A stretch of DNA of 25,944 nucleotides from the IMG/VR virus record IMGVR_UViG_3300044296_000239; one strand, 5' to 3'. The first letter of the stretch is position 1; each line of letters starts with the position of its first letter. Of this stretch, positions 163-21,057 are shown in pieces. A program made the position numbers and the translations under genes. The notes under the pieces are model-generated. The model searched no databases. It saw nothing but the letters and a program-made list of their open reading frames with translations, and had not been told where the DNA came from. This stretch comes from a virus. Lineage: Duplodnaviria; Heunggongvirae; Uroviricota; Caudoviricetes.

Positions 163-690
163 TTATTTTGTTGGAACTGTCCATCTACCAGCTTCAATAT
201 CAGCGTGCAGATCTAATGCCATTTGTCGCATATCAATATATGAACCATATACACCAGTTTGACGTTCAGCTTCTTCTAAGATAAGCTTACAACGACGAAC
301 GATTTCAGCATTACATGCATTTACATAGTCTGGATCATCTTTAGGGAAAATAGCTTTAATTTTCTCTTGTTCATTTGCCCAAATAGCCAAAGGATCTTGT
401 TCACCAGATTTTTGTGCATGATATAGACGATCTAATTGCGCACCGATTTCTCCATAGTGAACTCTACGTGCGACATTATATTCAGTACCTGGAATTGTTG
501 GAGCAATCCATTCACGTGTATCTGGATTTCGTTTCCAATCACGTGAATCAACTTCATCTGGACATGCAATCCATTCAAAGTTTTCGTGTACTTCGAAGCA
601 ATCATCAACTGATGCAACTACTTCATGAACACGCTGTGAACCATCTGGAGACAGCGGTTCTGTTTTAAAAATTAATGCAAATTTACTCAC
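163..690 (-). CDS. Putative tail-fibre assembly/chaperone-like protein (175 aa)
   Basis: GTG start with a GGAG SD inside the end of the upstream gene. Contains YNVARRVHYGEIGAQLDRLYH...W...IKAIFPK, matching the recurrent 'R..xY..IGxQLDxLYH...W...K...PK' pattern of small fibre-associated proteins in T4-like marine/freshwater phages (recalled pattern, not searched). Confidence 0.6.
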   Translation of the reverse strand: MSKFALIFKTEPLSPDGSQRVHEVVASVDDCFEVHENFEWIACPDEVDSRDWKRNPDTREWIAPTIPGTEYNVARRVHYGEIGAQLDRLYHAQKSGEQDPLAIWANEQEKIKAIFPKDDPDYVNACNAEIVRRCKLILEEAERQTGVYGSYIDMRQMALDLHADIEAGRWTVPTK

Positions 691-695
691 GTTTA

Positions 696-2318
696 TTACT
701 CCTGATTATTGTAATAATGTTGTTTTAACCATTGATAATGAGTTGGAAGTTTATCAAGTGAAAGTTGTAATTCTTTTACGTGATTTTCCCAATCTTCTCT
801 TACTTTCTTTAAATTATAACCTCTATTTATATTAAAACGCTGCGCTTCATCATCAATCCATCTTTTGGAAAGAGGGTTATAACCATGCCCTGCAGCAATA
901 TAAATTATACCACCTTGATCCGGTCCATATGTATGATTAACTAGATTTCTATAAGATAAGTCAGCATATGGATTACGAATTAAAGCTTGCCATTCTATCA
1001 TACTTGGAGAATATGTAAATTCTTGGGTTACATGCTTCCAGTATGGTGTATCATCACGAACAGATAATGCATAATGTAATGAAATAAATTCTTTAAATCC
1101 TTTAGTTTGATCAAATAATGCAAAGTTAAATGCATCGATATCATATTGATTAACTTTACCATCTCGCATATCAAGTGTATCAATTAACTTCATGATAGCT
1201 TCATGCGTTAACATTAATCCAGTAGATTCTAATGGTTCAATAAATCCATTAGCAAGACCTACACCTACTACATTTTTAATCCACGAACGTTTATGACATC
1301 CATGTTTAATCTTTATATGTCTAAATTCTGCTTGTTCAGCACGCTCTTTAGATCCTTCTCCAACATAATCCATTCTATCTGAAGCTAAATGTTTTCGAAA
1401 TTGCGCTTCTGCTTCTTCTTTAGTTGCAAACTTTGAAGAATAGACATAACCAGTACCGATTCTATTATATAATGGAATATTCCATACCCAACCAGCATCG
1501 ATACCAGTACAATTTGTAACGCTTGACATTTCCTTATCTTTATCTAAATAAGGAATAACAGTTGCAATAGCGCTATCATTCATTAGTGTATCATGAAAAG
1601 AAACAAATTCTGCTCCCATTGCGCCTTCTAATAACATCGATTTAAAACCTGTACAATCAATGTATAAATCGGCTTTTAAAACACCATTAGTAGCAGTTGT
1701 TACACCTGTTACGTAATCATCTTCATTTTGTATAACACCTGTTACATCATCAACTATATGCTTTACACCTTCAGGTATACAAATATTATTTTTTAAGTAT
1801 TGACCAAACAATGCCGCATCCATATGATATGCAGTGTCAAACTTAAAATTAAATCCACGAATTACATGATCTTCATTTTTTGTAAATTTCAATTGATTTG
1901 CCATAATGACATGATCATGATAAAATTCAGCAAAATTTTCTGGTGGAATTGATTGGTCTTCTAATTGCATATAGAACCAATCCATTGTTCCACGCTCTTT
2001 ATCAGTTAAATCAAATACTCCAAATGGATAGTGAAAAGTATTTGGTTTTTCATTTTTTTCTCTAAAGTCAGTAAAGCGAATAGATGTTTTATATGTTGCA
2101 TTACATTGCGGCATCCATTCATGATCTTTATCTTTTAAACCAATAGCCATCATATAGCTATTAATTTGTCCGATAGTAGACTCTCCTACTCCAATAGTTG
2201 GAACTCTATCAGACTCAACTAAAGTAATATCGATATGTGGTAATTGTTTTTTGAGGGCCGCTGCCGTCATCCAACCAGAACTACCACCACCAACAATCAA
2301 AACACTTTTAATGTGCAT
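696..2318 (-). CDS. Flavin-dependent halogenase, tryptophan halogenase (PrnA/RebH) family (540 aa)
   Basis: N-terminal FAD motif IVGGGSSGWMTAA; GVGEST; CNATYK (position of the catalytic Lys); WxWxIP motif GWVWNIPL; FIEPLESTG motif. AAGGA SD. Confidence 0.9.
   Translation of the reverse strand: MHIKSVLIVGGGSSGWMTAAALKKQLPHIDITLVESDRVPTIGVGESTIGQINSYMMAIGLKDKDHEWMPQCNATYKTSIRFTDFREKNEKPNTFHYPFGVFDLTDKERGTMDWFYMQLEDQSIPPENFAEFYHDHVIMANQLKFTKNEDHVIRGFNFKFDTAYHMDAALFGQYLKNNICIPEGVKHIVDDVTGVIQNEDDYVTGVTTATNGVLKADLYIDCTGFKSMLLEGAMGAEFVSFHDTLMNDSAIATVIPYLDKDKEMSSVTNCTGIDAGWVWNIPLYNRIGTGYVYSSKFATKEEAEAQFRKHLASDRMDYVGEGSKERAEQAEFRHIKIKHGCHKRSWIKNVVGVGLANGFIEPLESTGLMLTHEAIMKLIDTLDMRDGKVNQYDIDAFNFALFDQTKGFKEFISLHYALSVRDDTPYWKHVTQEFTYSPSMIEWQALIRNPYADLSYRNLVNHTYGPDQGGIIYIAAGHGYNPLSKRWIDDEAQRFNINRGYNLKKVREDWENHVKELQLSLDKLPTHYQWLKQHYYNNQE
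824..831 (-). promoter_or_regulatory. Possible T4-type late promoter TATAAATA inside the 3' end of the halogenase gene
   Basis: Exact TATAAATA on the minus strand 134 nt upstream of the 175-aa start. Intragenic and in AT-rich DNA, so it may be chance. Confidence 0.3.
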
Positions 2319-2350
2319 TACAAAAATCCTTCAATGATAAAAAAAAATAA

Positions 2351-3013
2351 TTAATTATAGTTATATACTATACAAATTCCAGATGCACCATATGCACCGC
2401 GTGAATGATTAACGTGTTCACCACAGCCACCAGCTCCTGGAGGAACATGTCCTTCATGTTGATGTGAGAAGTGATGATTTGGCCAACCTGAGAATTTAGA
2501 ACCACCAAAGAATGATGCACCACCACGTCCTCCACGGTTATCATGTCCTGAAGCACCGCCGCCACGAAGGTTAATATCTCCACCAGAACCTACACCACCG
2601 TGACCTCCACAATGACCCCAAACACTATTAGCACCTTGACCACCAGTGGCAGACAAATAACTGCCAAATGATGTAGTACCACCAGTGCCGGCACCGTCGT
2701 TTGAGTGAGCTCCGCTACCTTGTCCACCAATTGTAATACTAACGTTAGTGCCTACAGCCCAACTAGATACATCGATTCGTTTTTCAGAATATCCACCAGC
2801 ACCGCCAGATTGACCATGACCACTACCACCACCGCCTCCGCCACAAAGCATAACACGTATACTTCTACAACCTGCTTGTTTTGTCCATGTTCCGTTACCA
2901 GTCCATGTTTGGATGTTCATCAATTGACCAACATCATCATTCGAATCATATTTAGTAGATTGAGTTGATGAATTTGGAAAAGTGACAGTTGTTTGACCTA
3001 ATTTTACTGACAT
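2351..3013 (-). CDS. Glycine-rich tail/adhesin-like protein, paralog 3 (220 aa)
   Basis: N-terminus MSVKLGQTTVTFPNSSTQ; TWTKQAGCRSIRVMLCGGGGGG; repeated Gly tracts; C-terminal G.CIVYNY. Gly-rich (polyglycine-II type) phage tail domain. Confidence 0.8.
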   Translation of the reverse strand: MSVKLGQTTVTFPNSSTQSTKYDSNDDVGQLMNIQTWTGNGTWTKQAGCRSIRVMLCGGGGGGSGHGQSGGAGGYSEKRIDVSSWAVGTNVSITIGGQGSGAHSNDGAGTGGTTSFGSYLSATGGQGANSVWGHCGGHGGVGSGGDINLRGGGASGHDNRGGRGGASFFGGSKFSGWPNHHFSHQHEGHVPPGAGGCGEHVNHSRGAYGASGICIVYNYN

Positions 3014-3967
3014 ATTAATCTCTTCTTAACTATAATTATATACGATGCAGCAACCTTGAACACCATAAGCACCTCTAGAGTGTGATGTCCATTCTCCTGA
3101 TCCTCCAGTACCTGGAGCACAGTGATTTAAACCTTCTGACCAATGCGAATAGAAATTTCCACCATGGTGACCAGATACATTAGCACCACCAAAATATCCT
3201 TCTCCACCTTTTGATTGTCCTTGATCTCCGTGTGATCTTCCACCGCCACCGTGTAAGTTAATATCTCCACCAGAACCTACACCACCATGACCACCGGTAT
3301 GTGAACCCCAAGTATTAGCTCCATTGCCACCAGAGGCAGATAGATAACCACCAAATGATGTAGTACCTCCTCCGCCGCAACCTTGATGATAACCACGACC
3401 ATCACCAGCACCACCAATAGTTACTGTTACTGATGTGACGTTTGTAACGTCAATAACTTTTTCAGCAAATCCACCACCACCACCAGCTTCACAGTGACCA
3501 CAACCGCCGCCACCGCCACCAATAACTTGAACTAAAATTCTTCTACAACCGGCTGGTCTATTCCAAGTAGTACTACTAGTCCAAAAGTCAACCCTTAGAA
3601 TTTTACCTTTGTCTAAAGATGTATCGTATTTACTAGTTTGTACTGAAGAGTCATTATAAGTTAATCCAGTTTGACCTAATTTTACTGTCATTTTATTCCT
3701 CTTCTATTATTAAGCGTAACTGTAGACAACAACCATGCCATCTGATCCATAAGCACCGCGTCCATGATTTGTAATCCAATTACCAGCTCCTCCACCACCA
3801 GGTGCAGTATGGTTTGTACCTTCAGCGTAGTGCGGACGATAGCTGTGGTGATTACCAAAAGATCCACCACCAAAATATCCTGTGCCACCCTGTGAAGCAG
3901 CTTCATTATCATGTCCATGACCACCACCACCACGAAGGTTAATATCTCCGCCGGAACCTACACCGCC
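2570..3967. repeat. 30-bp block shared by the three Gly-rich paralogs (2570-2599, 3257-3286, 3938-3967)
   Basis: gttaatatctccaccagaacctacaccacc is identical in the first two copies. The third has 3 synonymous third-position changes. Encodes GGVGSGGDIN. Confidence 0.85.
3026..3691 (-). CDS. Glycine-rich tail/adhesin-like protein, paralog 2 (221 aa)
   Basis: Colinear with its neighbours: MTVKLGQTG, TWNRPAGCRRILVQVIGGGGGG, GGHGGVGSGGDINLHGGG, RGAYG, CIVYNY. Confidence 0.8.
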   Translation of the reverse strand: MTVKLGQTGLTYNDSSVQTSKYDTSLDKGKILRVDFWTSSTTWNRPAGCRRILVQVIGGGGGGCGHCEAGGGGGFAEKVIDVTNVTSVTVTIGGAGDGRGYHQGCGGGGTTSFGGYLSASGGNGANTWGSHTGGHGGVGSGGDINLHGGGGRSHGDQGQSKGGEGYFGGANVSGHHGGNFYSHWSEGLNHCAPGTGGSGEWTSHSRGAYGVQGCCIVYNYS

Positions 3968-4381
3968 ATGACCGCCAGAATGACCCCAGTTTGTATTAGC
4001 ACCTTGACCACCGGAAGCACTTACATATGAACCAAATGACGATGTTCCGCCACTACCACAGCCCTGGAAATAGTTACGACCATCACCAGCAGAACCAATA
4101 CTTACTGATACAGCTGTATTAGTTGCCCAACCTGAAGTATCAATCCACTTTTCAGCGAATCCGCCAGCACCGCCCGATTCAGTGTGACCACAACCACCTC
4201 CACCTGCGCCAACTACTAATACACGAATCTGGCGTGTACCAGCTGGTTTATACCAAGTACTACTGCCAGTATATGTTGCAATTTGTAATAATCCACCGCT
4301 ATCATCGTTCGAATCAAATCGCTGGATTTGTACTGTACCATCTGGGTATTCAACCCCAGTTTGTGTTAAACGAACTGTCAT
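3710..4381 (-). CDS. Glycine-rich tail/adhesin-like protein, paralog 1 (223 aa)
   Basis: MTVRLTQTGVEYPDGTVQ, TWYKPAGTRQIRVLVVGAGGGG, GGHGGVGSGGDINLRGGG, RGAYG. Starts 2 nt after the long fibre stop (TAATAATG). Confidence 0.8.
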   Translation of the reverse strand: MTVRLTQTGVEYPDGTVQIQRFDSNDDSGGLLQIATYTGSSTWYKPAGTRQIRVLVVGAGGGGCGHTESGGAGGFAEKWIDTSGWATNTAVSVSIGSAGDGRNYFQGCGSGGTSSFGSYVSASGGQGANTNWGHSGGHGGVGSGGDINLRGGGGHGHDNEAASQGGTGYFGGGSFGNHHSYRPHYAEGTNHTAPGGGGAGNWITNHGRGAYGSDGMVVVYSYA

Positions 4382-4383
4382 TA

Positions 4384-7758: not shown

Positions 7759-7786
7759 GTTTGGTCCTCGTTACCTTGTATTATTT

Positions 7787-7795
7787 TATTTATTA
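7787..7795 (-). promoter_or_regulatory. Possible late promoter variant TAATAAATA upstream of the long fibre gene
   Basis: One mismatch to TATAAATA, overlapping the stop of the upstream gene, about 30 nt before the ATG at 7758 (GAGGA SD in between). Confidence 0.4.
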
Positions 7796-8161: not shown

Positions 8162-8186
8162 TTTTTAATTTCCTATTTTACTTATT

Positions 8187-8528: not shown

Positions 8529-8535
8529 TTATTTA

Positions 8536-8817: not shown

Positions 8818-8822
8818 AGCTC

Positions 8823-8830
8823 TATTTATA
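8823..8830 (-). promoter_or_regulatory. T4-type late promoter TATAAATA
   Basis: Exact consensus in the intergenic gap, 5 nt before the ATG at 8817. Confidence 0.7.
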
Positions 8831-8834
8831 TCTC

Positions 8835-10922: not shown

Positions 10923-10925
10923 GGC

Positions 10926-11162: not shown

Positions 11163-11501
11163 TTATGAAGGTCTAGTTGCTCTAGGAGTTACTGTTATCT
11201 GTCCTTCAACTACGCGAATTACTGTGCCTAATTCTGCGTGGACAATTTCAATATCATAAACATAACGACCATCTTTTAATGCAGATGTTTGTGTGTTTGT
11301 TAAACTTAATTTAACTTCACCTCTATTAGTTGTTTTTGCACAGCCAATATTTGTAGATTGTAAAGATGCATAAGCTTTTCTAACTTGGCCGCGTACATTG
11401 TATGGGGCCAAATCAAGTGCATTACCGATAGAGTCTTGTACATCAAGAGTAGCTACAAAGTCTGAACCTTGATCGACAACTAAGTTAACTAACTGAGACA
11501 T
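11163..11501 (-). CDS. Virion structural protein, Ig-like/BppU-N-like fold (112 aa)
   Basis: NLVVDQGSDF...DL..Y.VRGQVRK.Y.S...G.VKLSLT..QTSALKDGRYVYDIEI...RVVEG.ITVTP..T, a widespread T4-like phage tail-region family. Confidence 0.8.
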   Translation of the reverse strand: MSQLVNLVVDQGSDFVATLDVQDSIGNALDLAPYNVRGQVRKAYASLQSTNIGCAKTTNRGEVKLSLTNTQTSALKDGRYVYDIEIVHAELGTVIRVVEGQITVTPRATRPS

Positions 11502-11552: not shown

Positions 11553-11924
11553 TCAGGCATCTTCTGGAGGAGAACTAAATTCTAGCCATTTTTGATTAGT
11601 TTCATCCCATTCATAATAATGATCAGCTATATTGGGACACATTATAGGAGCTTCCCATGAAAATGTAGTAGTGTTTAAAACCCATGAAGGATAAAGTTCA
11701 GGCTTTGGAGGAATAAATGCATCTAAATCTTCATAATACTTAAAACCAATTCCTGCAAAGTTTGCTCTTAATGGAGTACCTCCATTAATATGAACTCCAT
11801 TCTTAGTGTTGTATGAAGTTTTAATCCATCTTCCAGGAACACTATCAATCACATTATCAGCACACTTAATAACATCTATTACAATATTATCATCATCTAA
11901 CTTAGCGTAATGTCCAATTTCCAT
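11553..11924 (-). CDS. Putative tail-fibre assembly-like partner of the Gly-rich protein (123 aa)
   Basis: HYAKLDDDNIVIDVI...WIKTSYN...RANFAGIGF.Y....DAFIPPKP..PSWVLN....WEAP...YEWDE...W pattern, recalled as following Gly-rich tail genes. Confidence 0.75.
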   Translation of the reverse strand: MEIGHYAKLDDDNIVIDVIKCADNVIDSVPGRWIKTSYNTKNGVHINGGTPLRANFAGIGFKYYEDLDAFIPPKPELYPSWVLNTTTFSWEAPIMCPNIADHYYEWDETNQKWLEFSSPPEDA

Positions 11925-11932
11925 ATTAAACC

Positions 11933-13132
11933 TTATGTTGGAATAACATATCTAATAAACACAATTCCAGAATCTCCATTTGATCCTGCTCTATATGCAG
12001 TACCTCCTGATTCGCCATGACCTCCAGAACCTCTACTAGTACCTTGACCAATACCATCTGAGCCAGCAGTACCATAATACGTACGACCAGCTCCACCCCC
12101 ACCAGCATAATATTCAGTAGTTCCATCGCGAGCAAAGTCAATACCTCTTCCAGGACCACCATTTCCAGCAGCGCGTGATCCAGCATTACCACCTGCACCT
12201 CCTGCTCCTCCTCCACCCCCACCAGCTGAAGAAGTTCCATTATCATATCCACTACCACCCCAATTACCTTCACCAGGAACTGGATTACCTGCGCCAGCTC
12301 TACCGCCTCCACCGCCACCGCCGCCACCGCCTGAACCACCATAACGACCCGCAGATCCACCATCACGTGAACCTCCACCACCACCGCCAGTGCATCCTAT
12401 TACACCATCAATGTATGAACTTCCGCCGTCAGAACCATTATTGCCACCGCCAGACCATGAGCCACCGCCACCAACTTGGACCCATCTTCCACTAAGATTA
12501 GCCGGAATAGTTACATTGTCCCATCTTAAACCGCCTGCTCCACCACCGCCACCACCATTACCGCCGCCGCCTCCACCACCAGCAACTACTAATACTTCGC
12601 ATGGAACATTCTTAGCAGTATAAATCCAATTTGAATAAGTAAATTTATGATAGCGATAACCGTTACGATCAAATACTGCATCTCCTCCTCGTACATAGTC
12701 ATTCAAAGCCAATACAGGAGTTGATGCAATAATTGGTCCAGCAATAGACTCTGTTCTAAATACTACTGTCCACTGTCTATTACCATCTGGAATTCTATCA
12801 GATACGAATTTTTTTGTAGTATTATAAGTATTATTAACTATATTTGCTGTTCCATCCAATACTTTATCTGTAAAGTCAGCGGTTGAAAGTGTAGTACCAC
12901 TCAACGTATTAACAGTCCAATACAGATTGGTACCATCGGGTAAACCAGTAGTATTAATTGATATTGAGATTGAATCGCCTTCTGTATATGACGATGCATT
13001 AGCAGTCACTGCAGCATCAAAATGCCATAACCCATCTTCCAAGAAGTTTCTAACTTCTCTGGCATTTCTAATACCATTACCATTAAAATATGTTGGTAGA
13101 TTTTTTTTACCAATTATTCCACCATTATACAT
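11933..13132 (-). CDS. Gly-rich tail protein with Calx-beta/Ig-like middle domain (399 aa)
   Basis: N-terminal GGIIG..N.PT...W anchor; EGDSISISINTTGLPDGTNLYWTV...DF...G...I (Calx-beta-like); C-terminal EVLVVAGGGGGG...GGGGAG...GDSGIVFIRY Gly-rich domain. Confidence 0.8.
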   Translation of the reverse strand: MYNGGIIGKKNLPTYFNGNGIRNAREVRNFLEDGLWHFDAAVTANASSYTEGDSISISINTTGLPDGTNLYWTVNTLSGTTLSTADFTDKVLDGTANIVNNTYNTTKKFVSDRIPDGNRQWTVVFRTESIAGPIIASTPVLALNDYVRGGDAVFDRNGYRYHKFTYSNWIYTAKNVPCEVLVVAGGGGGGGNGGGGGGAGGLRWDNVTIPANLSGRWVQVGGGGSWSGGGNNGSDGGSSYIDGVIGCTGGGGGGSRDGGSAGRYGGSGGGGGGGGGGRAGAGNPVPGEGNWGGSGYDNGTSSAGGGGGGAGGAGGNAGSRAAGNGGPGRGIDFARDGTTEYYAGGGGAGRTYYGTAGSDGIGQGTSRGSGGHGESGGTAYRAGSNGDSGIVFIRYVIPT

Positions 13133-14123: not shown

Positions 14124-14135
14124 CTTTTTCTCCGA

Positions 14136-14786
14136 TTATTCTTTTTGTGTGATGTATGTTCTGTTTAACATAGTATGATTGTGATCTGTTGGACCCCAAT
14201 CACCATCTGGATGGAAAGCGATAACTGTCATCTCTTCATCTTTTGTCATGAATCGATGTTGTTCTCGTTCTTCTATACAGAACATTACACCTTGTTTTAA
14301 TTCTATTTGTTCTTCATCATATGATTTCTTTATACAAGCATAACCTCTACCACGTACTACAATACCAAGTCTAATACTTGGATGAATATGGTATGATTGT
14401 TTTACTCCACTTGGAAAATGCAATAAGTTTAGTGATGGATCTCCCATTCTAGGAGGATACACTAATAAACTATCACTACAGTTATTAATATAAACCAATC
14501 TTCCAGTCTTTTCTATTGGACCACCAATAGTATTTTGTCCTTTATATCCCATTCGAGTAAAGATATACACTTCTCCAGAAGTATCGATAGATTCACTCTG
14601 TAAAGACCAAAAACAAAAATATTGTCCTTCTACTGCAACGCTACCATTTGGAAACTTTACATCTCCGCTCATCACATATCCATATATTGTTGAATATGGT
14701 TTTGTATGATAAAGGGCATTTACAACTTTTTCACCAATCGATGGATACATCGTATCCAAAGCCAAAATTTGGTTATTAATAATCAT
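14136..14786 (-). CDS. Cupin-fold putative metalloprotein (216 aa)
   Basis: Cupin metal motif 1 LHFPSGVKQSYHIHPSIRLGIVVRGRG and motif 2 LKQGVMFCIEEREQHRF...MTVIAFHP. ATGA overlap with the upstream gene. Confidence 0.7.
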   Translation of the reverse strand: MIINNQILALDTMYPSIGEKVVNALYHTKPYSTIYGYVMSGDVKFPNGSVAVEGQYFCFWSLQSESIDTSGEVYIFTRMGYKGQNTIGGPIEKTGRLVYINNCSDSLLVYPPRMGDPSLNLLHFPSGVKQSYHIHPSIRLGIVVRGRGYACIKKSYDEEQIELKQGVMFCIEEREQHRFMTKDEEMTVIAFHPDGDWGPTDHNHTMLNRTYITQKE

Positions 14787-15916
14787 TTCATCATATCCGC
14801 AAAAGTATTACTTTGGTTAATATATTCACTATCAGGAGTTGGAAACTCTTTTGTGAATGACATATCATCATTTAAAAACATGACGATTTCTTTTTGTTTA
14901 ACTAAATTAGTGAGACTACCAACTTTAGGTTTACTATAGTATGACTGATCTCCATTAAATGCTAAAATGTAATCCTTAATAATATATTTAACGCTTTCCT
15001 CTGTGTTTTTAACTAATCTATCACTATTATTCATAGCCCAAAGTTGAAATTGTTCAGGACAATAAAATGTAGTATAATTCTCTAATATTTTAATATTTCC
15101 AATTGTTTTAGAATATGGTAATACTCTAACATAAACAGATTGCCATTTATTAGTAAAATTAATCCACCATAAAAATTTATAAAGAGTATCAATTGGAATT
15201 GGTGCAGCTGCGCATAAATGCTTAAACATCTCCATATATTTTGGAGCATAAGGTTTATATTCATCTTGTAATCTACCAATCATCCATGATACTATTTCAT
15301 CTTCTGCTTTATTTAAAGGTTCGAACAGAAATTCATATGGTCTATATGATGAAAATTTACCAGTTACCTGAGATCCAAAACATTGATCTGCACATTCTCC
15401 AGAAATTAACAGAAAGTCATCATTACCCACAAAATATGGAAATCTAAAACTTGATACACATTCAAATTTTTTAACTACATAATTTTTATAAAAATTAGGA
15501 TTTTCTAAAATAGAATGATCACTTAATAATACAACAACATGATCTTTTAAATCTTTTTCAGAACAATTTTTTAATAATCCACATAGAATAGCAGTAGAAT
15601 CAATACCTCCACTATACATAACTGCTAGTTTTCGACCTGATTCTTTAACCTGATTCATCAATTCAATAGCACGCTCATCGATTAATTCACCAAAATCTCT
15701 ATCAAACTTTTTAAATTCAGGAAGCTTTAAATGATCCATAATATCAGTTTTGATGGGAGTAGTAAATGTATTTGTCCTATCATGAGTACTAATATTATTA
15801 GAGAATAATTGATAATATCCACGCATAGCATGGCCACCTGGTAATTTATTGCACGCATCATAATGAGCTGGATTTACAAATAAATCATAGCTATTAAAGA
15901 ATATAGTTTTTTTCAT
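14783..15916 (-). CDS. Asparagine-synthetase-like N-type ATP pyrophosphatase, synthetase domain only (377 aa)
   Basis: PP-loop VMYSGGIDSTAI (SGGIDS at 15596-15613) and LLISGECADQCFGS (15371-15403), corresponding to the AsnB SGEGADELFG motif. No N-terminal Cys glutaminase domain. Confidence 0.75.
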   Translation of the reverse strand: MKKTIFFNSYDLFVNPAHYDACNKLPGGHAMRGYYQLFSNNISTHDRTNTFTTPIKTDIMDHLKLPEFKKFDRDFGELIDERAIELMNQVKESGRKLAVMYSGGIDSTAILCGLLKNCSEKDLKDHVVVLLSDHSILENPNFYKNYVVKKFECVSSFRFPYFVGNDDFLLISGECADQCFGSQVTGKFSSYRPYEFLFEPLNKAEDEIVSWMIGRLQDEYKPYAPKYMEMFKHLCAAAPIPIDTLYKFLWWINFTNKWQSVYVRVLPYSKTIGNIKILENYTTFYCPEQFQLWAMNNSDRLVKNTEESVKYIIKDYILAFNGDQSYYSKPKVGSLTNLVKQKEIVMFLNDDMSFTKEFPTPDSEYINQSNTFADMMK

Positions 15917-16653
15917 AAGCTGCTGTATTGAGTGCTTTCAGTCATAAAGGCATTAAGAATCGATTTGAGTTGTGTAATATCATTATTGTCTCTAACAATA
16001 TACGAATACTTTAATCTAAAATTTTCAGTTTCTGCAAGTCTACTAGCCATAGTATCATGTTGAAACATGATACGTTTAGCAGATTCTTGAAGGGTAAGAT
16101 CATGCAATTCAGCATATCCAGTAGTAAAAGGATATTGTAATAAAGGATCAGCTTCTATATTATTTTCTATAATATATTTAGCTTCTATATACTTTGAAAA
16201 ATATATATTTTGTTGACTATCAGTTCCTTTAGTAATTAATCTTCTAAATCTATCAATCTCAGCTTGAATAACATCTAATAAAGCAATCTTCTGGTTTATT
16301 AAAATATATCCATGTAATTGTTCAATAGTTGCAATATTTGGAGAATCTACCCAACTATAACCATCATCACTAATACGCATTCTCCAAGCTTTATTTCTAC
16401 TAAAGATTGTACGTTGAACTCCATTTTTCATACTATCAAAAATATAAGAATATACAACTTGCTTATCAAAGGATGATAATGCTCTTACACTGCCTGAATA
16501 AACACCAACTCCAAAGATACGCTTATCAGTAACATCAACTAATATATTAGATTGCTTATTATTTAATGACATATCTAATAGTTTATCATTAGGATTAATA
16601 AAATACTGTAATTGTGTTTTATAATATTCATCAATTTCTAAATCTGTTAACAT
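15913..16653 (-). CDS. Hypothetical protein, paralog of 16655-17380 (246 aa)
   Basis: C-terminal 89 aa align without gaps to the neighbour with 37 identities (hand count). The Y..KY.EA...YP...YA...LQ..A..I...AE.EN.R pattern resembles fibre-assembly chaperone tails. Confidence 0.75.
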   Translation of the reverse strand: MLTDLEIDEYYKTQLQYFINPNDKLLDMSLNNKQSNILVDVTDKRIFGVGVYSGSVRALSSFDKQVVYSYIFDSMKNGVQRTIFSRNKAWRMRISDDGYSWVDSPNIATIEQLHGYILINQKIALLDVIQAEIDRFRRLITKGTDSQQNIYFSKYIEAKYIIENNIEADPLLQYPFTTGYAELHDLTLQESAKRIMFQHDTMASRLAETENFRLKYSYIVRDNNDITQLKSILNAFMTESTQYSSL

Positions 16654-16654
16654 A

Positions 16655-17380
16655 TCAATATTCTCTATCTGACATAAATTGTTCTACGATATCTTTTAAA
16701 TTTTCAATCTTGGTTTCATCTAAGATACGTTTAAAGTATTTTAATCTCATATTTTCATACTCAGCGACAGTTGCATTTCTATTTTCGTATTGTAGTTTAA
16801 TATCTCTAGCAGCATCTTGTAAGCTAGAATCAATAATCTTTGCATATCCATCAACAAATGGATATTGTCCATCCAATGCATCAACTACATCTGATTTTAA
16901 TATATCACATGCTTCAATATATTTGTAAAAGTATATTTTTTCTTGATGTCTTAAATATCGTGAAATATGTCTAGTATTTCTTCTAATTCTAGTGGTAATA
17001 AAATCAATTGCTGCTACTTTTTGAATATTTAAAATTGCATTATATAACTCTTCAGTATCTTTAAAATCATAAACTTCACGCCATTCTAAATTCACAGAAT
17101 CTGTATATACAAGTTGCCATCTCCAGCAATCATTTAAACCAAATTCAATTGGAGTATCATAGGTTGGTTCTTTTAATATTCCAAATGCATTTGGGTCTTT
17201 TTGAATATATCGTAATGATTTAAAGTATTGACTAAGCGCAATAATCCTTCCAAATTTATCATTACTCATTAATATTGCAAATTTCCCCCTAGTAGCAAGA
17301 TTCATGGATACATCTTCATCCCTTATAAAATAAGGATAAAGCGACATATAAAATTCCCATGATTCTTTTTTACTTAACAT
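16655..17380 (-). CDS. Hypothetical protein, paralog of 15913-16653 (241 aa)
   Basis: Long ORF coupled on both sides (TAATG overlap; 1-nt gap). Shares IYFxKYIEA, QYPF..GYA, ENxRLKY with the neighbour. Confidence 0.75.
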   Translation of the reverse strand: MLSKKESWEFYMSLYPYFIRDEDVSMNLATRGKFAILMSNDKFGRIIALSQYFKSLRYIQKDPNAFGILKEPTYDTPIEFGLNDCWRWQLVYTDSVNLEWREVYDFKDTEELYNAILNIQKVAAIDFITTRIRRNTRHISRYLRHQEKIYFYKYIEACDILKSDVVDALDGQYPFVDGYAKIIDSSLQDAARDIKLQYENRNATVAEYENMRLKYFKRILDETKIENLKDIVEQFMSDREY

Positions 17381-17682
17381 TAATATTTTACTGGAGGAGT
17401 ATTGTTTAAAATATAATCGTCAATTCTAGTTTTTATACTATTAATTACCGATGGATGCATATTGATATTATTATAAACTTCATTCGGCAAAAGAGTTGTA
17501 AATCTTACAAACACATCTTCTGCCATTGTACTTGGAACAATGCACAATATGTTTATTCCATCTTGGCCAACCTGATCAACAAATTTTTGCTTTAATACCT
17601 TATGAAAACGTACTTGTATTACATGATCAAGTTGTTCAAGCTGTTTTATTAGCTGTATTAAATTTTCATTATCAGTTAACAT
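17380..17682 (-). CDS. Hypothetical protein, paralog of 17685-18035 (100 aa)
   Basis: 26 identities in an 86-aa ungapped alignment with the neighbour (hand count); tight coupling. Confidence 0.75.
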   Translation of the reverse strand: MLTDNENLIQLIKQLEQLDHVIQVRFHKVLKQKFVDQVGQDGINILCIVPSTMAEDVFVRFTTLLPNEVYNNINMHPSVINSIKTRIDDYILNNTPPVKY

Positions 17683-17684
17683 AA

Positions 17685-18035
17685 TTATGCCTGTAAATCA
17701 TATGCTACAGCTGTTGCCATATCAGTCATTTGATCTGGGAGAATATCTTTGTAAATATAATTATCAATATTCATCTTAAATTTTTGTACAATTCCTTGAT
17801 GTTTATCAATATTAGTTATATCTTCAACATGAATATAATCTCTAAATTGAATATAATGATCGGCACCATCTCTGCGCTTAACCATACAACAAATATGAAG
17901 ACTCTCTCCTCCAAGCTTGGCTTTTACAGCTTCTCTTAAGACTTCATTTGCGCGTACTTGAACAACGTTTCCAATACTTGCAAGAAGTTCAACTAGTGCT
18001 GATAAATTTTCAATGGTGTTGTTTAAAATAATCAT
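17685..18035 (-). CDS. Hypothetical protein, paralog of 17380-17682 (116 aa)
   Basis: ATGA overlap with the radical SAM gene stop; shares ENL..L...L.....V.QVR...VL and H......K..ID.YI with the neighbour. Confidence 0.75.
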   Translation of the reverse strand: MIILNNTIENLSALVELLASIGNVVQVRANEVLREAVKAKLGGESLHICCMVKRRDGADHYIQFRDYIHVEDITNIDKHQGIVQKFKMNIDNYIYKDILPDQMTDMATAVAYDLQA

Positions 18036-19474
18036 TTTTCTGCCCTTGCTTGAGTGTATACTTCTACATCATCTAATTTTACTTTTTCATTAATTACCTT
18101 GATTGGAATAACCTTTCTCTTAGGTTCTTCTTCATGTTTAGATAATGTACCCCAAATATCTTTTCTATCTTCAGGTAATATATCACTATTTATGTAAAAT
18201 GGGATGTAACCTCCAGTGATTTTTTGAAATGCAATTGCAAAAAGCACTATATTATCGCTATATGCATTATCACATGTAGTATTCCAATATTCATCTTGTA
18301 AAAACATACATGATCCTTTACATAGATGTAATACTGGACAATCTCCACATTTTGGTCTATTCATCCAATGAGTAGCCGATTTAATTAAGACATTGTCATA
18401 ATCATCTAAATTGCCGCTTAAATGTGATTCTCCATTCATTGCAGTTTCTACAGCAGAAACATTTTGACATGTTAAGACATTACCTTTCATATCAATTGCT
18501 AAGACGTGTTCGTTGTCCATTCCACATTTTTGGCCAAGATAATAGTCTTTTTTCTGATGTAAAATAGATTCAATAAAACCATTAATTTTTTGAACTATTC
18601 CATCAAATCCAATATTTGCATCTACACTAAAGATATCATTAAATGCTGTTCGTCTAAACTCAAAATGTTCTTGCTTTGTAGTTAGGCAATTATTCATTCC
18701 ATCAGCATCATATGCATCTACTAATCCACCTTCACCCAATATAACATTTTCATCACCTGTAAAATTTATAAACCATTCATGAATCTCTTTACGACTCTTG
18801 TTTTTAGAATTCAACATTGAATTAAAACTAATTCTACCCAAAGGTCGCATCATCTTATAAAATTCTAATACAATCTTTTTATTTTCTGGATCTTCGAATG
18901 GATCTGGACCACGCACACTTTGACCTGGACCATCATGACTAATTGAAACTGCAAATCCATTATACATTAACCACATACAAATTTCTCTAGTTAATATAGA
19001 TCCGTTTGTGATAACAGAAAATTTAGGTGCTTTTTTCCAATGAGAAAACCTCTCGCGAATTGCTTCAGCAAGAGGTTTCATAGTCTTCCAATATACAAAT
19101 GGTTCACCACCCCAAAATTCAATACTTAGACCTTTCTCTTCACAAAATTCTAATACATCTAATTTTGCAAGAAAATCATCAATATCTTTTTTAGATGTTT
19201 CTGGCGGACGTCCAACAAATTTTTGTGAACAATAATCACAAGAATAATTGCATGAAAGACCCATTTGGATCTTTAATTTTTGTATTTGTTTGGATTTTTT
19301 TAGAGGTGTGTCTTTTGAAAACGGCACTACTGGAGGTGTAATGTCATCAATGTTTTCGCTAGTTGGTATTTGAAATACAATACCATCCTCACTAGTAAGA
19401 GTACTAAGTTGGTTATCATACCAAAATAGTTTTCTGTCTTCTGAATGGCGTTCAGCCAATATTTCAAAAATCAT
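18032..19474 (-). CDS. Radical SAM enzyme with SPASM domain (480 aa)
   Basis: CxxxCxxC CNYSCDYC (19229-19252); FWGGEPF; VITNGS; SHDG; SPASM Cx13Gx4C (CGMDNEHVLAIDMKGNVLTC), Cx2Cx5Cx3C (CGDCPVLHLCKGSC, 18308-18349) and a further downstream Cys. AAGGA SD. Confidence 0.93.
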   Translation of the reverse strand: MIFEILAERHSEDRKLFWYDNQLSTLTSEDGIVFQIPTSENIDDITPPVVPFSKDTPLKKSKQIQKLKIQMGLSCNYSCDYCSQKFVGRPPETSKKDIDDFLAKLDVLEFCEEKGLSIEFWGGEPFVYWKTMKPLAEAIRERFSHWKKAPKFSVITNGSILTREICMWLMYNGFAVSISHDGPGQSVRGPDPFEDPENKKIVLEFYKMMRPLGRISFNSMLNSKNKSRKEIHEWFINFTGDENVILGEGGLVDAYDADGMNNCLTTKQEHFEFRRTAFNDIFSVDANIGFDGIVQKINGFIESILHQKKDYYLGQKCGMDNEHVLAIDMKGNVLTCQNVSAVETAMNGESHLSGNLDDYDNVLIKSATHWMNRPKCGDCPVLHLCKGSCMFLQDEYWNTTCDNAYSDNIVLFAIAFQKITGGYIPFYINSDILPEDRKDIWGTLSKHEEEPKRKVIPIKVINEKVKLDDVEVYTQARAEK

Positions 19475-19495
19475 TATATTAATCCTTCAAAATAA

Positions 19496-19504
19496 TATTT
19501 ATTA
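19496..19504 (-). promoter_or_regulatory. Possible late promoter variant TAATAAATA upstream of the radical SAM gene
   Basis: One mismatch to TATAAATA, overlapping the Cys-rich gene stop, about 20 nt before the ATG at 19474. AT-rich context weakens it. Confidence 0.35.
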
Positions 19505-19969
19505 GCCGCCGCAAGCGTCTCCACATGCACAAGCACAAGCACAAGCACAAGCACAATTATATGAAACTTGGCTTTGAACACAATTATAGGTGCACGCACA
19601 GTTACAATTTGGTTGTAACCATTCTTGTGAATCACAATTAACACAATTTACTGTAGAAGTAATTTGACAGTTCGTGCATTGAATATTACCACAATTTGCT
19701 GCAGCAACTGTACAATTACCATTATCACAATTACCTGCATTATTTTTTTGATAATAAGCATAACCCAATACGCCTGAAAGATTAGCTATATTATCTCTAT
19801 ATGCTGGTTTAGTATTATTTTGAATCCATGATAAATTTGCCGAATATGTATTAACTTCTGCTGTAATACCAGAAGCTGTTACAGTACCTTCAATATAAAC
19901 ACCGGCTTTTTTACGAGCTTCCTTATATACATCCGCTATTGTAATTGGACCTGTTGATTGTAATGTCAT
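19502..19969 (-). CDS. Cys-rich protein, candidate radical SAM substrate / fibre-tip protein (155 aa)
   Basis: GAGGA SD, TAATG overlap with the fibre stop. No Cys in residues 1-80, 18 Cys in residues 81-155, 10 Asn-Cys dipeptides, ends CACACACACACGDACGG. Confidence 0.85.
   Translation of the reverse strand: MTLQSTGPITIADVYKEARKKAGVYIEGTVTASGITAEVNTYSANLSWIQNNTKPAYRDNIANLSGVLGYAYYQKNNAGNCDNGNCTVAAANCGNIQCTNCQITSTVNCVNCDSQEWLQPNCNCACTYNCVQSQVSYNCACACACACACGDACGG
19523..19555 (-). repeat. Hexamer tandem repeat (TGTGCT)x4 plus TGTGCA and TGT, encoding the Cys-Ala run
   Basis: Plus strand acatgc-(acaagc)4-aca read directly. Confidence 0.9.
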
Positions 19970-21057
19970 TATCTATCCTCAAGAGCTTTTACTCTTTCAG
20001 TCAATTCATTAATGGCTTGTAAAAGTAATGCGCCCATATTTCCATATGCAACGCCTAAAGTACCATCTGCTTCTGTATGTATTAATTCTGGAGCTTGCTG
20101 CTTTACTTCTTGAGCAATGACACCAATCTTGTGTTCATTAGTAGTAACATGATCATAATAAACACCACGCATTTTATTAACTATGCTTAATGCATCTTTA
20201 ATAGTTTCAACGTTCTTTTTAAATTTAATATCAGAATATGCAACTACGTCACCTGCCATAACTAAGTGACCGCCAGGTTGAATAGCTCCACTAATTACAC
20301 CCTGATTAGTAAAACAGATGTAACCTTCAGTTGACCAATACAAACCTGTATCTTGATTTGTATCAGAAGAGAATCCAATACTTGGTTGAGTCTGTGAACC
20401 ATTACCAACTAATAGTCTATTACCAATAGTTGCATTAGTAACAGCTATTGAAGAAGTACTTAAAATCTTTGCGCCGCTAAGACCTGTGATCCAAGATGGA
20501 TCATTATAACCAGCTAGTGTAGAAACTGGTGTATAGCCACAACTAGCAGTAATATCGGCTAGATTTGCATTAGTCGCAGATGTTACGCGGCCATCACCAC
20601 CAACTGTTACTTTAGTATATGTTCCTGGTACAACTCCACTAGGATTAAGTGATAATGCAGCGCTTTGATTTGTAGAGCCATCAAAGGTAATATTCCATGT
20701 GGCATCACCAGTAATTGAAATAATACGTGCTGTTCTTAATTTAGTAGTAGTATCAGCATTACCGATTAAGTTGCCAACGCAGTCAGCGTATAGTTTACCT
20801 TGAAGTGTAAGATTACCGTTCTGATCTAATACAAGTTCTGCACCATCAACTGAATCGATTTGTACAGAAAAATTATTTCCATACGTGTTTATTGTACCAC
20901 TAATTGGAGCGAATGAACGCACCTCATTAATAGCTGCAGCTAAACTTGTTGAGGTTGTTAGAAGAGAAGCTTGATCACCAGCAAAAGAACTAATTGCATT
21001 TGTCTTAACTCGCCACTGTTCAAATGTATCTTCTAGACTCACATTGATAACAGACAT
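19969..21057 (-). CDS. Short tail fibre with C-terminal intramolecular chaperone (peptidase S74) (362 aa)
   Basis: N-terminal DTFEQWRVKTNAI anchor; SGVVPGTYTKVTVGGDGRVT and GSQTQPSIGFSSDTNQDTGLY fibre modules; SDIKFK...IGVIAQEV...VAYGNMGALLLQAINEL chaperone (19972-20235). Confidence 0.88.
   Translation of the reverse strand: MSVINVSLEDTFEQWRVKTNAISSFAGDQASLLTTSTSLAAAINEVRSFAPISGTINTYGNNFSVQIDSVDGAELVLDQNGNLTLQGKLYADCVGNLIGNADTTTKLRTARIISITGDATWNITFDGSTNQSAALSLNPSGVVPGTYTKVTVGGDGRVTSATNANLADITASCGYTPVSTLAGYNDPSWITGLSGAKILSTSSIAVTNATIGNRLLVGNGSQTQPSIGFSSDTNQDTGLYWSTEGYICFTNQGVISGAIQPGGHLVMAGDVVAYSDIKFKKNVETIKDALSIVNKMRGVYYDHVTTNEHKIGVIAQEVKQQAPELIHTEADGTLGVAYGNMGALLLQAINELTERVKALEDR

Follow-up and report, generated by a model that had tools for sequence, protein, structure and literature searches.

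The window analysed here, a stretch of 25,944 nt from an uncultured T4-like marine phage (IMGVR_UViG_3300044296_000239), contains two groups of genes that we refer to as module A (short fibre A, a Cys-rich protein, a radical SAM enzyme, or rSAM, and the genes that follow it) and module B (long fibre B, three Gly/His-rich proteins, a halogenase and a 175-aa protein; Table 1). A sequence-only reading of this DNA had already described these genes, their overlaps and a Ser/Lys(+5) pair in both fibres, all of which was borne out when ORF coordinates, Pfam domains and motifs were checked, with every named gene present on the minus strand in its described position. Both fibres resemble endosialidase-type fibres with an S74 intramolecular chaperone, having the C-terminal domain and the Ser/Lys pair (Ser275 and Lys280, in the motif SDIKFK and invariant among five orthologs, in fibre A; Ser1030 and Lys1035 in fibre B). 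The Cys-rich gene overlaps the fibre A gene by 1 nt and the first Gly-rich gene lies 2 nt from the fibre B gene; since the whole window is tightly packed (-14 to +51 nt at every gene junction), such spacing is nothing special and proves nothing.

Table 1. Features of the two modules and of the genes around them.
Feature	Coordinates	Strand	Evidence
175-aa Syn9-gp40-family protein	163..690	-	phrog_1787; 'Gp40 family' cluster
VirX1-type flavin-dependent halogenase	696..2318	-	Trp_halogenase PF04820, 358 bits
Gly/His-rich proteins of receptor-binding type, three paralogs of 223, 221 and 220 aa	2351..4381	-	Gly_rich_2 PF21722
Long tail fibre B, 1124 aa	4384..7758	-	Four N-terminal CBM_5_12 repeats (PF02839); C-terminal S74 PF13884, 66.7 bits
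123-aa partner of the fourth Gly-rich protein	11553..11924	-	phrog_7759
Fourth Gly_rich_2 protein, 399 aa, fibre/RBP-type	11933..13132	-	PF21722, 47.5 bits; phrog_2295
Cupin-domain protein	14136..14786	-	PF07883, 29.2 bits
PP-loop (SGGIDS) ATP-pyrophosphatase-like protein	14783..15916	-	Motif in sequence; homologs in 25 rSAM loci
Paralog pair of 241 and 246 aa, possibly fibre-assembly-like	15913..17380	-	31% identity, E 2e-29
Pair of small accessory paralogs downstream of the rSAM, 116 and 100 aa	17380..18035	-	29% identity, E 4e-16
Radical SAM/SPASM peptide-maturase-like enzyme	18032..19474	-	PF04055; CX3CX2C at aa 75; SPASM CX2CX5CX3C at aa 376
Cys-rich Asn-Cys-repeat tip protein (putative), 155 aa	19502..19969	-	N-terminal MTLxxxGxI motif, Cys-rich core, (CA)5C tail
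Short tail fibre A, 362 aa, C-terminal S74 intramolecular chaperone	19969..21057	-	Peptidase_S74 PF13884, aa 275-325, 40.9 bits
Coiled-coil protein, 78 aa, lying between the VrlC and short-fibre genes	21069..21305	-	Homologs at the same position in 23 loci and G001
Giant virion structural protein (VrlC-like, DUF4815)	21292..25944	-	PF16075, 86.7 bits; 5' end outside the window

Module A occupies a conserved slot, the start of which is marked by the VrlC-like gene; this gene matches the VrlC gene of S-SSM5 and precedes the short fibre in the related loci L004, L007, L051-L055, L068, L072, L242 and G001. In G001, a close relative, another rSAM cassette with a CHxS-tailed protein replaces module A in the same slot, and only aa 1-205 of fibre A (predicted mature length ~274 aa) are common to the fibre found there; by this comparison, exchange of the cassette takes the distal third of fibre A with it.

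The 155-aa Cys-rich protein contains 18 Cys, all beyond residue 80, and 10 Asn-Cys dipeptides, and its gene adjoins that of the rSAM in all close relatives sampled. Many of its 177 homologs are fused to Peptidase_S74 right behind the x-Cys (xC) repeat (...CDC-IFSDDRLK), with an rSAM gene immediately downstream of the fusion; in phage JWF, gp028 carries NCNCDCNCNCSC followed by a Hint domain, and the side fibre of phage RSP15 has NCQCGN as its C-terminal end. Fibres of 365-1082 aa ending in NCNCNC were also found among relatives, those of L051, L053, L055, L068 and L072 in the same slot behind VrlC and the coiled-coil gene, and L064 mirrors the layout of the window: behind its S74 fibre come three NC-tailed proteins (81-87 aa) and then the rSAM. 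These fusions and NC-ended fibres argue, at the level of sequence, that the Cys-rich protein belongs to the virion as a fibre-type component; the predicted substrate of the adjoining radical SAM/SPASM enzyme is its Asn-Cys/Ala-Cys repeat region. Against this reading count many close rSAM relatives (L010, L014, L033, L038, L044 and L049), where small ORFs surround the pair and no fibre gene is nearby; the Cys-rich protein of these loci has a C-terminal domain with a hydrophobic tail.

Catalytic motifs are retained in both enzymes of the window, and the SPASM domain of the rSAM scores 32.9 bits with TIGR04085 (cut-off 27). Homologs of the rSAM (45% identical) adjoin the NC-tailed fibres of RSP15 and JWF, and a same-strand ORF with at least three x-Cys units lay within -6/+3 kb of the rSAM in 66 of 78 IMG/VR viral loci. 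Enzyme class and tip class were associated without crossover (NC repeats at 66/78 rSAM and 0/27 halogenase loci; Gly-rich proteins at 0/78 and 11/27, respectively), Fisher P values for these counts overstating the support because the loci are phylogenetically non-independent. No xC-repeat ORF was matched in 357 kb of control (halogenase) loci. With a stricter motif set and search window, and with RSP15 and JWF counted, the repeat was present at 65 of 80 rSAM loci; among the other 15, the relevant flank was missing in nine, NCRCNC was present in two, the pattern was broken in the homolog of two more and RSP15 (L001) had only the two-repeat NCQCGN, leaving L059 as the sole clear exception. Conversely, of 49 loci in which (NC)4 occurs in frame and the downstream flank is 3.5 kb or longer, 40 had an rSAM homolog. 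This two-way association strongly supports an rSAM that would be dedicated to the Asn-Cys-repeat protein.

The nearest NCBIfam families of the rSAM are PapB, QhpD, geopeptide maturase and CcpM, all far under their cut-offs (81 against 340 bits for PapB), and because no curated family cut-off is reached its chemistry is a matter of analogy only. As in QhpD/QhpC, PapB and NxxcB, a CX3CX2C motif and a SPASM domain are combined with an adjoining gene for a predicted Cys-rich substrate; QhpC is a protein subunit and not a released peptide, and NxxcB joins Cys to the beta-carbon of Asn, which fits the Asn-Cys pattern. Apart from its low family scores, the window system differs from all three in that the predicted substrate is a phage fibre-type protein, often of 130-1082 aa, and in the strict x-Cys alternation at or near the C-terminus or just before the S74/Hint cleavage site. 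By analogy with PapB, QhpD and NxxcB, the reaction would most likely join Cys sulfur to carbon in thioether cross-links, stapling the distal tip.

The repeats might instead form a metal-binding ladder on a trimeric axis, the Cys staying thiolates and the rSAM having some other role. The tip of T4 gp37, with its His-x-His iron sites, is an analogue; strict xCxCxC alternation would put all Cys on one face of a beta-strand, the S74 fusions imply trimers, and the CHxS-tailed family of relatives has both Cys and His. We nevertheless consider such a ladder improbable as a replacement for covalent modification, for which the near-obligate two-way linkage to a SPASM maturase argues, its nearest relatives all modifying Cys-containing peptides; the two are not mutually exclusive. 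Very improbable, and somewhat more so than the ladder, is that module A is a RiPP-type cluster whose Cys-rich peptide is no part of the virion but is released and diffuses, with the host or competitors as its target. The layout would suit this, since it resembles a precursor (Cys-free leader, Cys-rich core) upstream of an rSAM/SPASM maturase, an AsnB-like PP-loop enzyme and a cupin, as would the position of several close relatives amid small non-structural ORFs and the three tandem short precursor-like genes of L064. Domain searches of the window genes, however, found no protease or exporter in the cassette, and the repeat that would be the peptide core elsewhere terminates long fibres or abuts the S74 and Hint self-cleaving domains typical of fibre ends. 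The MTLPxSGxI N-terminal region of the Cys-rich family, moreover, is conserved and folded-protein-like, and in L022 is fused to a Gly-rich fibre domain.

In module B, each of the three Gly-rich paralogs has 10-12 His, with conserved Gly tracts and variable loops. An AF2 model (pLDDT 84) had the Pam3 fibre gp24 as its best PDB match (7ypx_A, E 2.4e-8, TM 0.61), followed by Bxb1 tail-tip chains and the Gly-rich domain of ALK/LTK, and together with the PF21722 assignment this suggests that the three proteins are Pam3-gp24-like receptor-binding domains. They differ from gp24 in having no long helical docking domain and in being three paralogs instead of one gene, and from S16 gp38, which sits on gp37, in giving no match to Pfam GP38 (PF05268). 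As gp25 follows gp24 in Pam3, a two-domain protein of ~140-175 aa follows the Gly-rich genes in relatives, gp40-like homologs lying directly behind them in most. The model of the 175-aa protein combines an N-terminal beta domain with a helical C-terminal one; the beta domain aligns to the chaperones Pam3 gp25 (Z 4.4, a weak likeness) and Mu Tfa (Z 3.1). The earlier label 'chaperone-like' is thus moderately supported for this protein, a probable assembly chaperone of the Gly-rich proteins. We know of no enzyme in the tip systems of Pam3 and S16.

The halogenase has all four motifs GGGSSG, ATYK, WVWNIP and EPLES, and its best match among solved structures is VirX1 from cyanophage Syn10 (PDB 6QGM; E 7e-145, full length; ~45% identity to the Syn10 gene). 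Its gene context matches that of Syn9. Gly-rich genes, then the gp40-like gene and then the halogenase is an order conserved among Syn9, P-TIM40, S-RIM44 and S-CREM1, and all matches to the Gly_rich_2 model lay directly upstream of the halogenase in four of five whole records. Position relative to the gp40-like gene varies: the halogenase precedes it in the window and in L081 and L082, and follows it in L083-L089, Syn9, P-TIM40 and S-RIM44. Unlike the VirX1-type context, the window halogenase sits between the Gly-rich genes and the gp40-like partner; no dioxygenase array was seen in the window or in L081, with no Pfam oxygenase domain among the downstream genes checked, and in both fibre-type genes continue on either side of the halogenase region. 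No Gly-rich gene adjoins the halogenase in S-B64, HTVC008M and L091-L097 (47%-identity group), and the more distant halogenases of S-B64 and HTVC008M are surrounded by replication or packaging genes. The link to the Gly-rich proteins, which the halogenase may halogenate, is one of synteny only, within one halogenase clade; two Gly-rich paralogs of L087, without any Trp, count against this.

On a competing account, small molecules and not the Gly-rich proteins are what the halogenase acts on, the enzyme being auxiliary or part of secondary metabolism and merely located in a hypervariable island next to the fibre genes; the same may hold for the PP-loop and cupin genes. The same halogenase family lies downstream of tail-fibre genes in Syn9, P-TIM40, S-RIM44 and S-CREM1. 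A Syn9-type halogenase/2OG-dioxygenase cluster has been published as secondary-metabolite synthesis, the two halogenases and ten dioxygenases of Syn9 being read as a metabolite pathway, as are bacterial halogenase-dioxygenase-TonB-receptor neighbourhoods; the available part of that article draws no link to the directly upstream Gly-rich fibre genes (Iyer et al., 2010; PMC2938197). VirX1, reported as a trimer with a large and open active site and with its natural substrate unnamed, can halogenate numerous small aromatics in vitro (PMC8407142), and the surroundings of the halogenases of S-B64, HTVC008M and L091-L097 point the same way. We give this account serious weight, at a little under even odds: what speaks for the Gly-rich proteins is their position directly upstream in most whole records, a linkage that outlasts the rearrangement around the gp40-like gene, and, in the window and L081, fibre-type genes on both sides in place of a dioxygenase array. 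It is rather unlikely, in turn, that the small tip proteins of both modules are independent mini-fibres or receptor-binding proteins docked on the baseplate or an adaptor, their adjacency to S74 fibres being mere clustering of tail genes. Pam3 gp24 is a homotrimer docked directly on the baseplate (PMC9608196), those Cys-rich relatives that have an S74 domain of their own resemble complete trimeric fibres, and in L111 one of these comes after an SU10_adaptor gene; an S74 fibre is nearby in few loci, and the tight packing of all window genes makes the overlaps uninformative. The Gly-rich proteins, on the other hand, have only ~35 residues before the TNF-like part where gp24 has its long N-terminal helical docking domain, and for module A the fused forms, in which a fibre in that slot itself ends in the NC tail, the exchange of the distal part of fibre A with the cassette and the arrangement in L064 all speak for attachment to the fibre.

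The gene content, motifs, folds and statistical associations observed here are best explained as a whole, with a probability of about 0.6, by two tail-fibre tip modules in each of which the conserved functional unit is a tip protein with its enzyme; from them we infer the relation of enzyme to substrate, its chemistry, and the place of the tip proteins on the virion and as caps. The four-part pattern of S74 fibre, tip, enzyme and chaperone previously proposed as the unit did not hold: S74 genes were nearby at only 11 of the 78 rSAM loci and at only 5 of the 27 with a halogenase, and the recurrent element is the tip-enzyme pair. The idea of a dedicated enzyme for each cap stood for the rSAM and the Asn-Cys-repeat protein, giving module A strong support; for the halogenase and the Gly-rich proteins its support is synteny in one clade only and it fails in S-B64 and HTVC008M, support for module B being moderate. 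That each fibre is capped by its downstream protein or proteins is plausible, and the Cys-rich protein would probably continue or cap fibre A once the S74 domain is cleaved off. For capping count the relatives with an NC tail on the fibre itself, the swapped distal third of fibre A and the resemblance of the Gly-rich fold to receptor-binding tips; against it count the absence of a nearby S74 fibre in most relatives of either pair and the Cys-rich relatives that resemble independent mini-fibres. We know of no S74 fibre that gains a separately encoded cap after cleavage.

Across the roughly one hundred phage loci sampled, the recurrence of the rSAM with the Asn-Cys-repeat protein suggests chemical modification of host-contacting tips by phages. 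We found no paper describing this link, or that between the halogenase and the Gly-rich proteins. Chemical tip modification as a general strategy is an extrapolation. The fourth Gly-rich protein, which no halogenase or rSAM gene adjoins, counts against it, and cyanophage halogenase/dioxygenase clusters have been published as secondary metabolism (PMC2938197).

The fourth Gly-rich protein and its small partner were absent from the earlier count of such genes; homologs of the partner lie directly behind Gly-rich ORFs in L083, L100, L102 and L105. Among the remaining genes of the module A cassette, the 116- and 100-aa paralogs were assigned to no family by family searches, and homologs come after the rSAM in L004-L007, L021, L025 and L080. 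A single copy of the 241/246-aa gene follows the rSAM in L021, L022, L025 and L080; the claim that the module A paralogs are chaperone-like is only weakly supported, the language-model neighbours of the 241/246-aa pair, which include the Caudo_TAP and HI1402_helical clusters at 0.85-0.90, being a lead only. Profile searches with the PP-loop protein gave no family above cut-off, and the cupin gene co-occurs in L004, L007, L022 and L080.

All 29 substantial ORFs of the window lie on the minus strand, separated by gaps of -14 to +51 nt, and their content (the giant VrlC/DUF4815 protein alongside genes for fibres and for Gly-rich proteins) marks this stretch as the tail and baseplate region of an uncultured T4-like marine myovirus. 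When the window was compared by megablast with cultured phages, the sole match was 79 nt of the VrlC gene of S-SSM5. Every feature named in the sequence-only reading was borne out (genes, Ser/Lys motifs, 1-nt overlap, enzyme motifs and paralog pairs), as was its proposal of an architecture repeated within this phage: a short fibre (fibre A), a Cys-rich protein, a radical-SAM enzyme (rSAM) and chaperone-like paralogs in module A, and a long fibre (fibre B), three Gly/His-rich proteins, a halogenase and a 175-aa protein in module B. By domain and Ser/Lys pair, both fibres fit the Peptidase_S74 (S74) intramolecular-chaperone class and are predicted to undergo autocleavage; the Ser and Lys(+5) residues of fibre A are unchanged across five orthologs. 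Both paralog pairs of module A were confirmed by sequence comparison. The 241-aa paralog showed no similarity to gp029 of Achromobacter phage JWF, and the 116-aa paralog gave no usable language-model match, its structural neighbours being generic alpha/beta folds only. Fibre B also carries four CBM_5_12 repeats (chitin/carbohydrate-binding type) in its N-terminal ~170 aa, i.e. at the expected baseplate-attachment end and not at the distal end.

Features of the window and of related loci (L, sampled related loci from IMG/VR or phages; G001, a relative contig)
Feature	Location	Strand	Details
175-aa protein	163-690	-	module B
Halogenase	696-2318	-	module B
Three Gly/His-rich proteins	2351-4381	-	module B
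Fibre B	4384-7758	-	C-terminal PF13884, 66.7 bits (cut-off 22); S1030/K1035
Fourth Gly_rich_2 protein, then 123-aa partner	11553-13132	-	399 aa; partner phrog_7759
rSAM	18032-19474	-	module A
Fibre A	19969-21057	-	C-terminal PF13884, 40.9 bits (cut-off 22); S275/K280
Flavoprotein	L036:8409-9620, L015:3082-4233, L018:9230-10396		encoded in rSAM/NC-protein loci
His/Trp-rich protein	L081:9225-10517, L083:5764-6993, others		window copy would begin just left of base 163
~300-aa Cys-rich form	L010:7483-8385, L014:7021-8034, L033, L038, L044, L049
Protein ending ...VKAGFKxW...	L053:4987-5922; RSP15 ORF047, L001:5314-6129		240-310 aa
S74-fused Cys-rich mini-fibre	L114:427-4158		between two differing radical-SAM genes (515, 478 aa)
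G001 alternative cassette	L238 = G001:C1:59400-74200		e.g. L238:3056-3631

The proposal that each type of tip protein has its own enzyme agreed with a co-occurrence count of same-strand genes within -6/+3 kb of the enzyme, in which enzyme class tracked tip class with no crossover. At least three x-Cys repeats (here called NC repeats) in a same-strand ORF were found at 66 of 78 IMG/VR rSAM loci (36-75% identity) and at none of 27 halogenase loci, while Gly-rich genes accompanied 11 of the 27 halogenase loci and none of the 78 rSAM loci. Fisher tests gave P = 4e-16 for the NC repeats and P = 5e-8 for the Gly-rich genes, values that overstate independence given that the loci are related; the Gly-rich tally required strict similarity of sequence, and composition alone would admit further loci. 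The S74 fibre did not hold its place as the constant member of these modules, an S74 gene being near only 11/78 rSAM and 5/27 halogenase loci. The lasting core is the pairing of tip protein with enzyme, for which support is very good in the case of rSAM and moderate in that of the halogenase; the small proteins may cap the S74 fibres.

A candidate Cys-containing substrate gene adjoins rSAM, and this association runs in both directions. With a stricter motif and window, 65 of 80 loci (now including the cultured phages RSP15 and JWF) were positive. Nine of the 15 negatives lack the relevant flank, two have NCRCNC, two carry interrupted-pattern homologs and one is the two-repeat tail of RSP15, leaving L059 as the only clear exception. 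The stricter motif was absent from 357 kb of control halogenase loci, and 850 kb of opposite-strand sequence held two occurrences. Conversely, a scan for in-frame (NC)4 placed the motif inside an ORF at 86 loci, and an rSAM homolog was present at 40 of the 49 that had at least 3.5 kb downstream; the remaining (NC)4 loci without rSAM were mostly internal low-complexity runs, several of them in giant-virus bins. By tblastn, rSAM genes 45% identical to that of the window were found in the unrelated cultured phages Ralstonia RSP15 and Achromobacter JWF, in both cases a short way downstream of tail-fibre genes; the pairs are ORF048 with ORF045 in RSP15 and gp028 with gp030 in JWF. A flavoprotein of 383-403 aa, 23-24% identical to the window halogenase, occurs in some of the rSAM/NC-protein loci, so both enzyme classes can share one cassette.

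The rSAM carries the CX3CX2C cluster motif (CNYSCDYC at aa 75; PF04055, 34.7 bits) and a SPASM domain (TIGR04085, 32.9 bits, cut-off 27; CGDCPVLHLCKGSC at aa 376), by which it is assigned to the radical SAM/SPASM superfamily only and to no named family. Its nearest curated families, PapB (81.3 against 340 bits), QhpD (70.5 against 453), CcpM (64.1 against 500), geopeptide maturase and SCIFF, all scored far under their equivalog cut-offs; their NCBIfam names refer to peptide or protein maturation, and several to thioether cross-links. PapB makes Cys-to-Asp cross-links and NxxcB joins Cys to the beta-carbon of Asn. Given these nearest families, this chemistry and the x positions of the repeat (mostly Asn, Asp and Ala), our best guess is that rSAM would staple the tip by thioethers. 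One cyanophage paper labelled a radical-SAM maturase an 'antibiotic synthesis gene' (PMC12801897); literature searches linking radical SAM enzymes to the tail fibres or receptor-binding proteins of phages yielded nothing relevant.

The Cys-rich protein, whose gene overlaps that of fibre A by 1 nt, contains 18 Cys, all past residue 80 and ten of them preceded by Asn. Conservation across its 177 homologs covers the N-terminus (MTLPxSGxIxxxDINxEIG) and a Cys/Asn core. Many are 220-246 aa long with a C-terminal Peptidase_S74 whose cleavage motif abuts the repeat (...NCNCACACQCDC-IFSDDRLK), and an rSAM gene directly follows these fused genes. S74 domains are end markers of trimeric fibres. The side fibre of RSP15 has the C-terminus ...NTNCQCGN, JWF gp028 runs through ...RQNCNCDCNCNCSC directly into a Hint self-cleaving domain, and in distant relatives fibres 365-1082 aa long terminate in NCNCNC. 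Judged from its homologs, the Cys-rich protein is most probably a fibre-type protein rather than a free peptide. Against the PDB, sequence and profile searches with this family returned only a low-complexity cytochrome match.

At five loci (L051, L053, L055, L068 and L072) an NC-tailed fibre occupies the same slot as fibre A, after VrlC and the 78-aa coiled-coil gene; next come a 270-310-aa relative of RSP15 ORF047 and then rSAM. L064, from a 42%-identity lineage, has the window layout, with an S74 fibre ahead of three tandem proteins of 81-87 aa that end in NCNC(A/N)CNC, and then rSAM. On these grounds fibre A and the small Cys-rich protein look like a split form of the NC-tailed fibre, an equivalence that is positional only, since the L053 and L072 fibres with NC tails show no sequence similarity to fibre A. 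Prediction of a complex of three copies of fibre A (aa 150-274) with three of the Cys-rich protein scored 0.00, with a poor partner fold (pLDDT ~45), and so speaks neither for nor against capping. The proteins ending ...VKAGFKxW... that lie between NC-tailed fibres and rSAM (E 4e-7 between those of L053 and RSP15) belong to no family found and are absent from the window. In a further form of the Cys-rich protein, ~300 aa long, the xC repeat precedes a conserved ~170-aa C-terminal domain (SKIICTKLH...) with a hydrophobic, membrane-like end; this form adjoins rSAM and is surrounded by small non-structural ORFs. The form in L022 has an inserted Gly-rich domain.

The closest relative by module B, a 167.6-kb contig (G001, 99% complete) whose halogenase and VrlC are 90% and 62% identical to those of the window, contains no homolog of the window rSAM. 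Its short fibre, in the same slot, matches fibre A over residues 1-205 only and has no S74 domain. There follow a cupin/JmjC protein, four radical-SAM enzymes of which three are SPASM-like, and a protein of 191 aa whose C-terminal sequence is VCHASCHSSCHSSRGRR; synteny with the window restarts at the homolog of 11163-11501. The family of the 191-aa protein has at least 704 members and a nearly invariant tail, CHxSCHxSCH in 104 of the best 120 matches. It recurs together with rSAM genes in other contigs (L240-L243), where the succession VrlC, short fibre, cupin, rSAM is also seen; the related-locus search queried with the CHxS-tailed protein returned only its self match. This comparison supports a swappable unit composed of the fibre end, a repeat-tailed protein and radical-SAM enzymes, and of the indirect arguments for joint action of small protein and fibre end it is the best.

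The three Gly/His-rich proteins of module B are Gly_rich_2 paralogs (PF21722, 32.6-44.5 bits against a cut-off of 24.3). An AF2 model (pLDDT 84) matched gp24 of Pam3 (7ypx_A; E 2.4e-8, TM 0.61), which has a TNF-like plus Gly-rich fold, and further matches were to 7yfw_a (9e-7), Bxb1 tail-tip chains and the ALK/LTK glycine-rich domain; the Gly-rich profile reached E 0.01 against PDB sequences. The T-even adhesin family GP38 of Pfam (PF05268) gave no match at E <= 0.01, and 6F45 was not among the Foldseek matches listed for the model. In Pam3, receptor binding falls to this TNF-like plus Gly-rich part, which forms one end of a homotrimeric fibre; folding takes place with a 162-aa chaperone, gp25, that is absent from virions (PMC9608196). 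Pam3 gp24 possesses a long helical docking domain, whereas the window proteins have none and therefore need something to sit on. No virion data for the Gly-rich proteins of Syn9, gp38 and gp39, were found in the literature searched.

The 175-aa protein belongs to the Syn9 gp40 family; it matched phrog_1787 only, to which no function is assigned, and no Pfam family, Caudo_TAP included. Its model (pLDDT 86), with beta strands at residues 1-62 and helices at 70-166, resembles the two-domain plan of Pam3 gp25, and the beta domain aligned weakly with gp25 (7ypx_a; Z 4.4, 52 residues) and with Mu Tfa (5yvq_B; Z 3.1). Foldseek against the PDB gave nothing under E 0.49, sequence and profile searches of the family against the PDB gave no match, and there was no similarity to the 123-aa protein. 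A gp40-like gene comes directly after the last Gly-rich gene in most relatives. This position, together with the gp25 plan and the weak domain alignments, makes 'chaperone-like' a reasonable but not established description.

The halogenase (PF04820, 358.5 bits; GGGSSG at aa 10, ATYK at 74, WVWNIP at 277 and EPLES at 361) has as its closest solved relative VirX1 of cyanophage Syn10 (6qgm), matched over the full length at E 7e-145, the next match being at 4e-87. VirX1 is described as trimeric, its active site as large and open and its preferred halide as iodide; its natural substrate was not named (PMC8407142). Gly-rich ORFs lie within ~6 kb upstream on the same strand in six of ~8 identity groups (our own grouping of the 27 IMG/VR halogenase loci), and matches to the Gly_rich_2 model were all directly upstream of the halogenase in four of five whole records. 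The order of fibre, Gly-rich genes, gp40-like gene and halogenase(s) is common to Syn9, P-TIM40, S-RIM44 and S-CREM1; in the IMG/VR groups, the arrangement with respect to the gp40-like gene and a ~410-430-aa gene varies.

A metabolic role was favoured in Iyer et al. (PMC2938197), where such halogenases are connected with dioxygenase arrays and metabolite synthesis is proposed; in earlier work on cyanophages, prnA was called transient or its function was given as unknown (PMC1079782, PMC2984593). The halogenase gene also sits among recombination genes in S-B64 and between terminase subunits in HTVC008M, and a 47%-identity group (L091-L097) has no Gly-rich neighbour of the halogenase. A distal-loop Trp (NWGH, TWGSH, VWGH) is confined to the window/L081/L082 group, in which halogenase and Gly-rich genes directly adjoin; elsewhere the position is taken by Tyr or another residue, and in L087 two paralogs are without any Trp. 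With these counter-examples, the metabolite reading and a Trp limited to one group, the link between halogenase and Gly-rich proteins is a good lead, not a finding.

Phage host range is decided by receptor-binding tips, which to our knowledge are treated as unmodified polypeptides in engineering and prediction. The widest reading of these data, to which we give a probability of roughly 0.3, is that phages routinely tailor such tips through dedicated, co-swapped enzymes: rSAM would cross-link Asn-Cys or CHxS tails, VirX1-type enzymes would halogenate Gly/His-rich tips, neighbouring 2OG oxygenases would possibly hydroxylate, and many of the 'auxiliary metabolic genes' that neighbour tail genes would encode virion-maturation enzymes, this phage having two chemistries and its closest relative a third. 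Our literature searches turned up no account of phage fibre tips being modified by rSAM or halogenase. If the reading is true, a cross-link or halogen at the tip would be a hidden layer in host recognition and particle stability; the presence of radical-SAM, halogenase and oxygenase genes among tail genes would be explained, and VirX1-type viral halogenases would gain a candidate natural substrate. Cultured carriers make the idea directly testable (JWF and RSP15 for the rSAM pair; Syn9, Syn10, S-RIM44 and P-TIM40 for the halogenase set).

The ~410-430-aa protein, rich in His and Trp (phrog_1458, with no Pfam family), accompanies the halogenase, gp40-like and Gly-rich genes in most relatives and is a further member of module B. 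At L114 an S74-fused Cys-rich mini-fibre is flanked by radical-SAM genes on both sides. The window also encodes a tip plus small-protein unit adjoined by neither a halogenase nor an rSAM gene, in which a fourth Gly_rich_2 protein precedes its 123-aa partner, and the same gene order recurs in L083, L100, L102 and L105.
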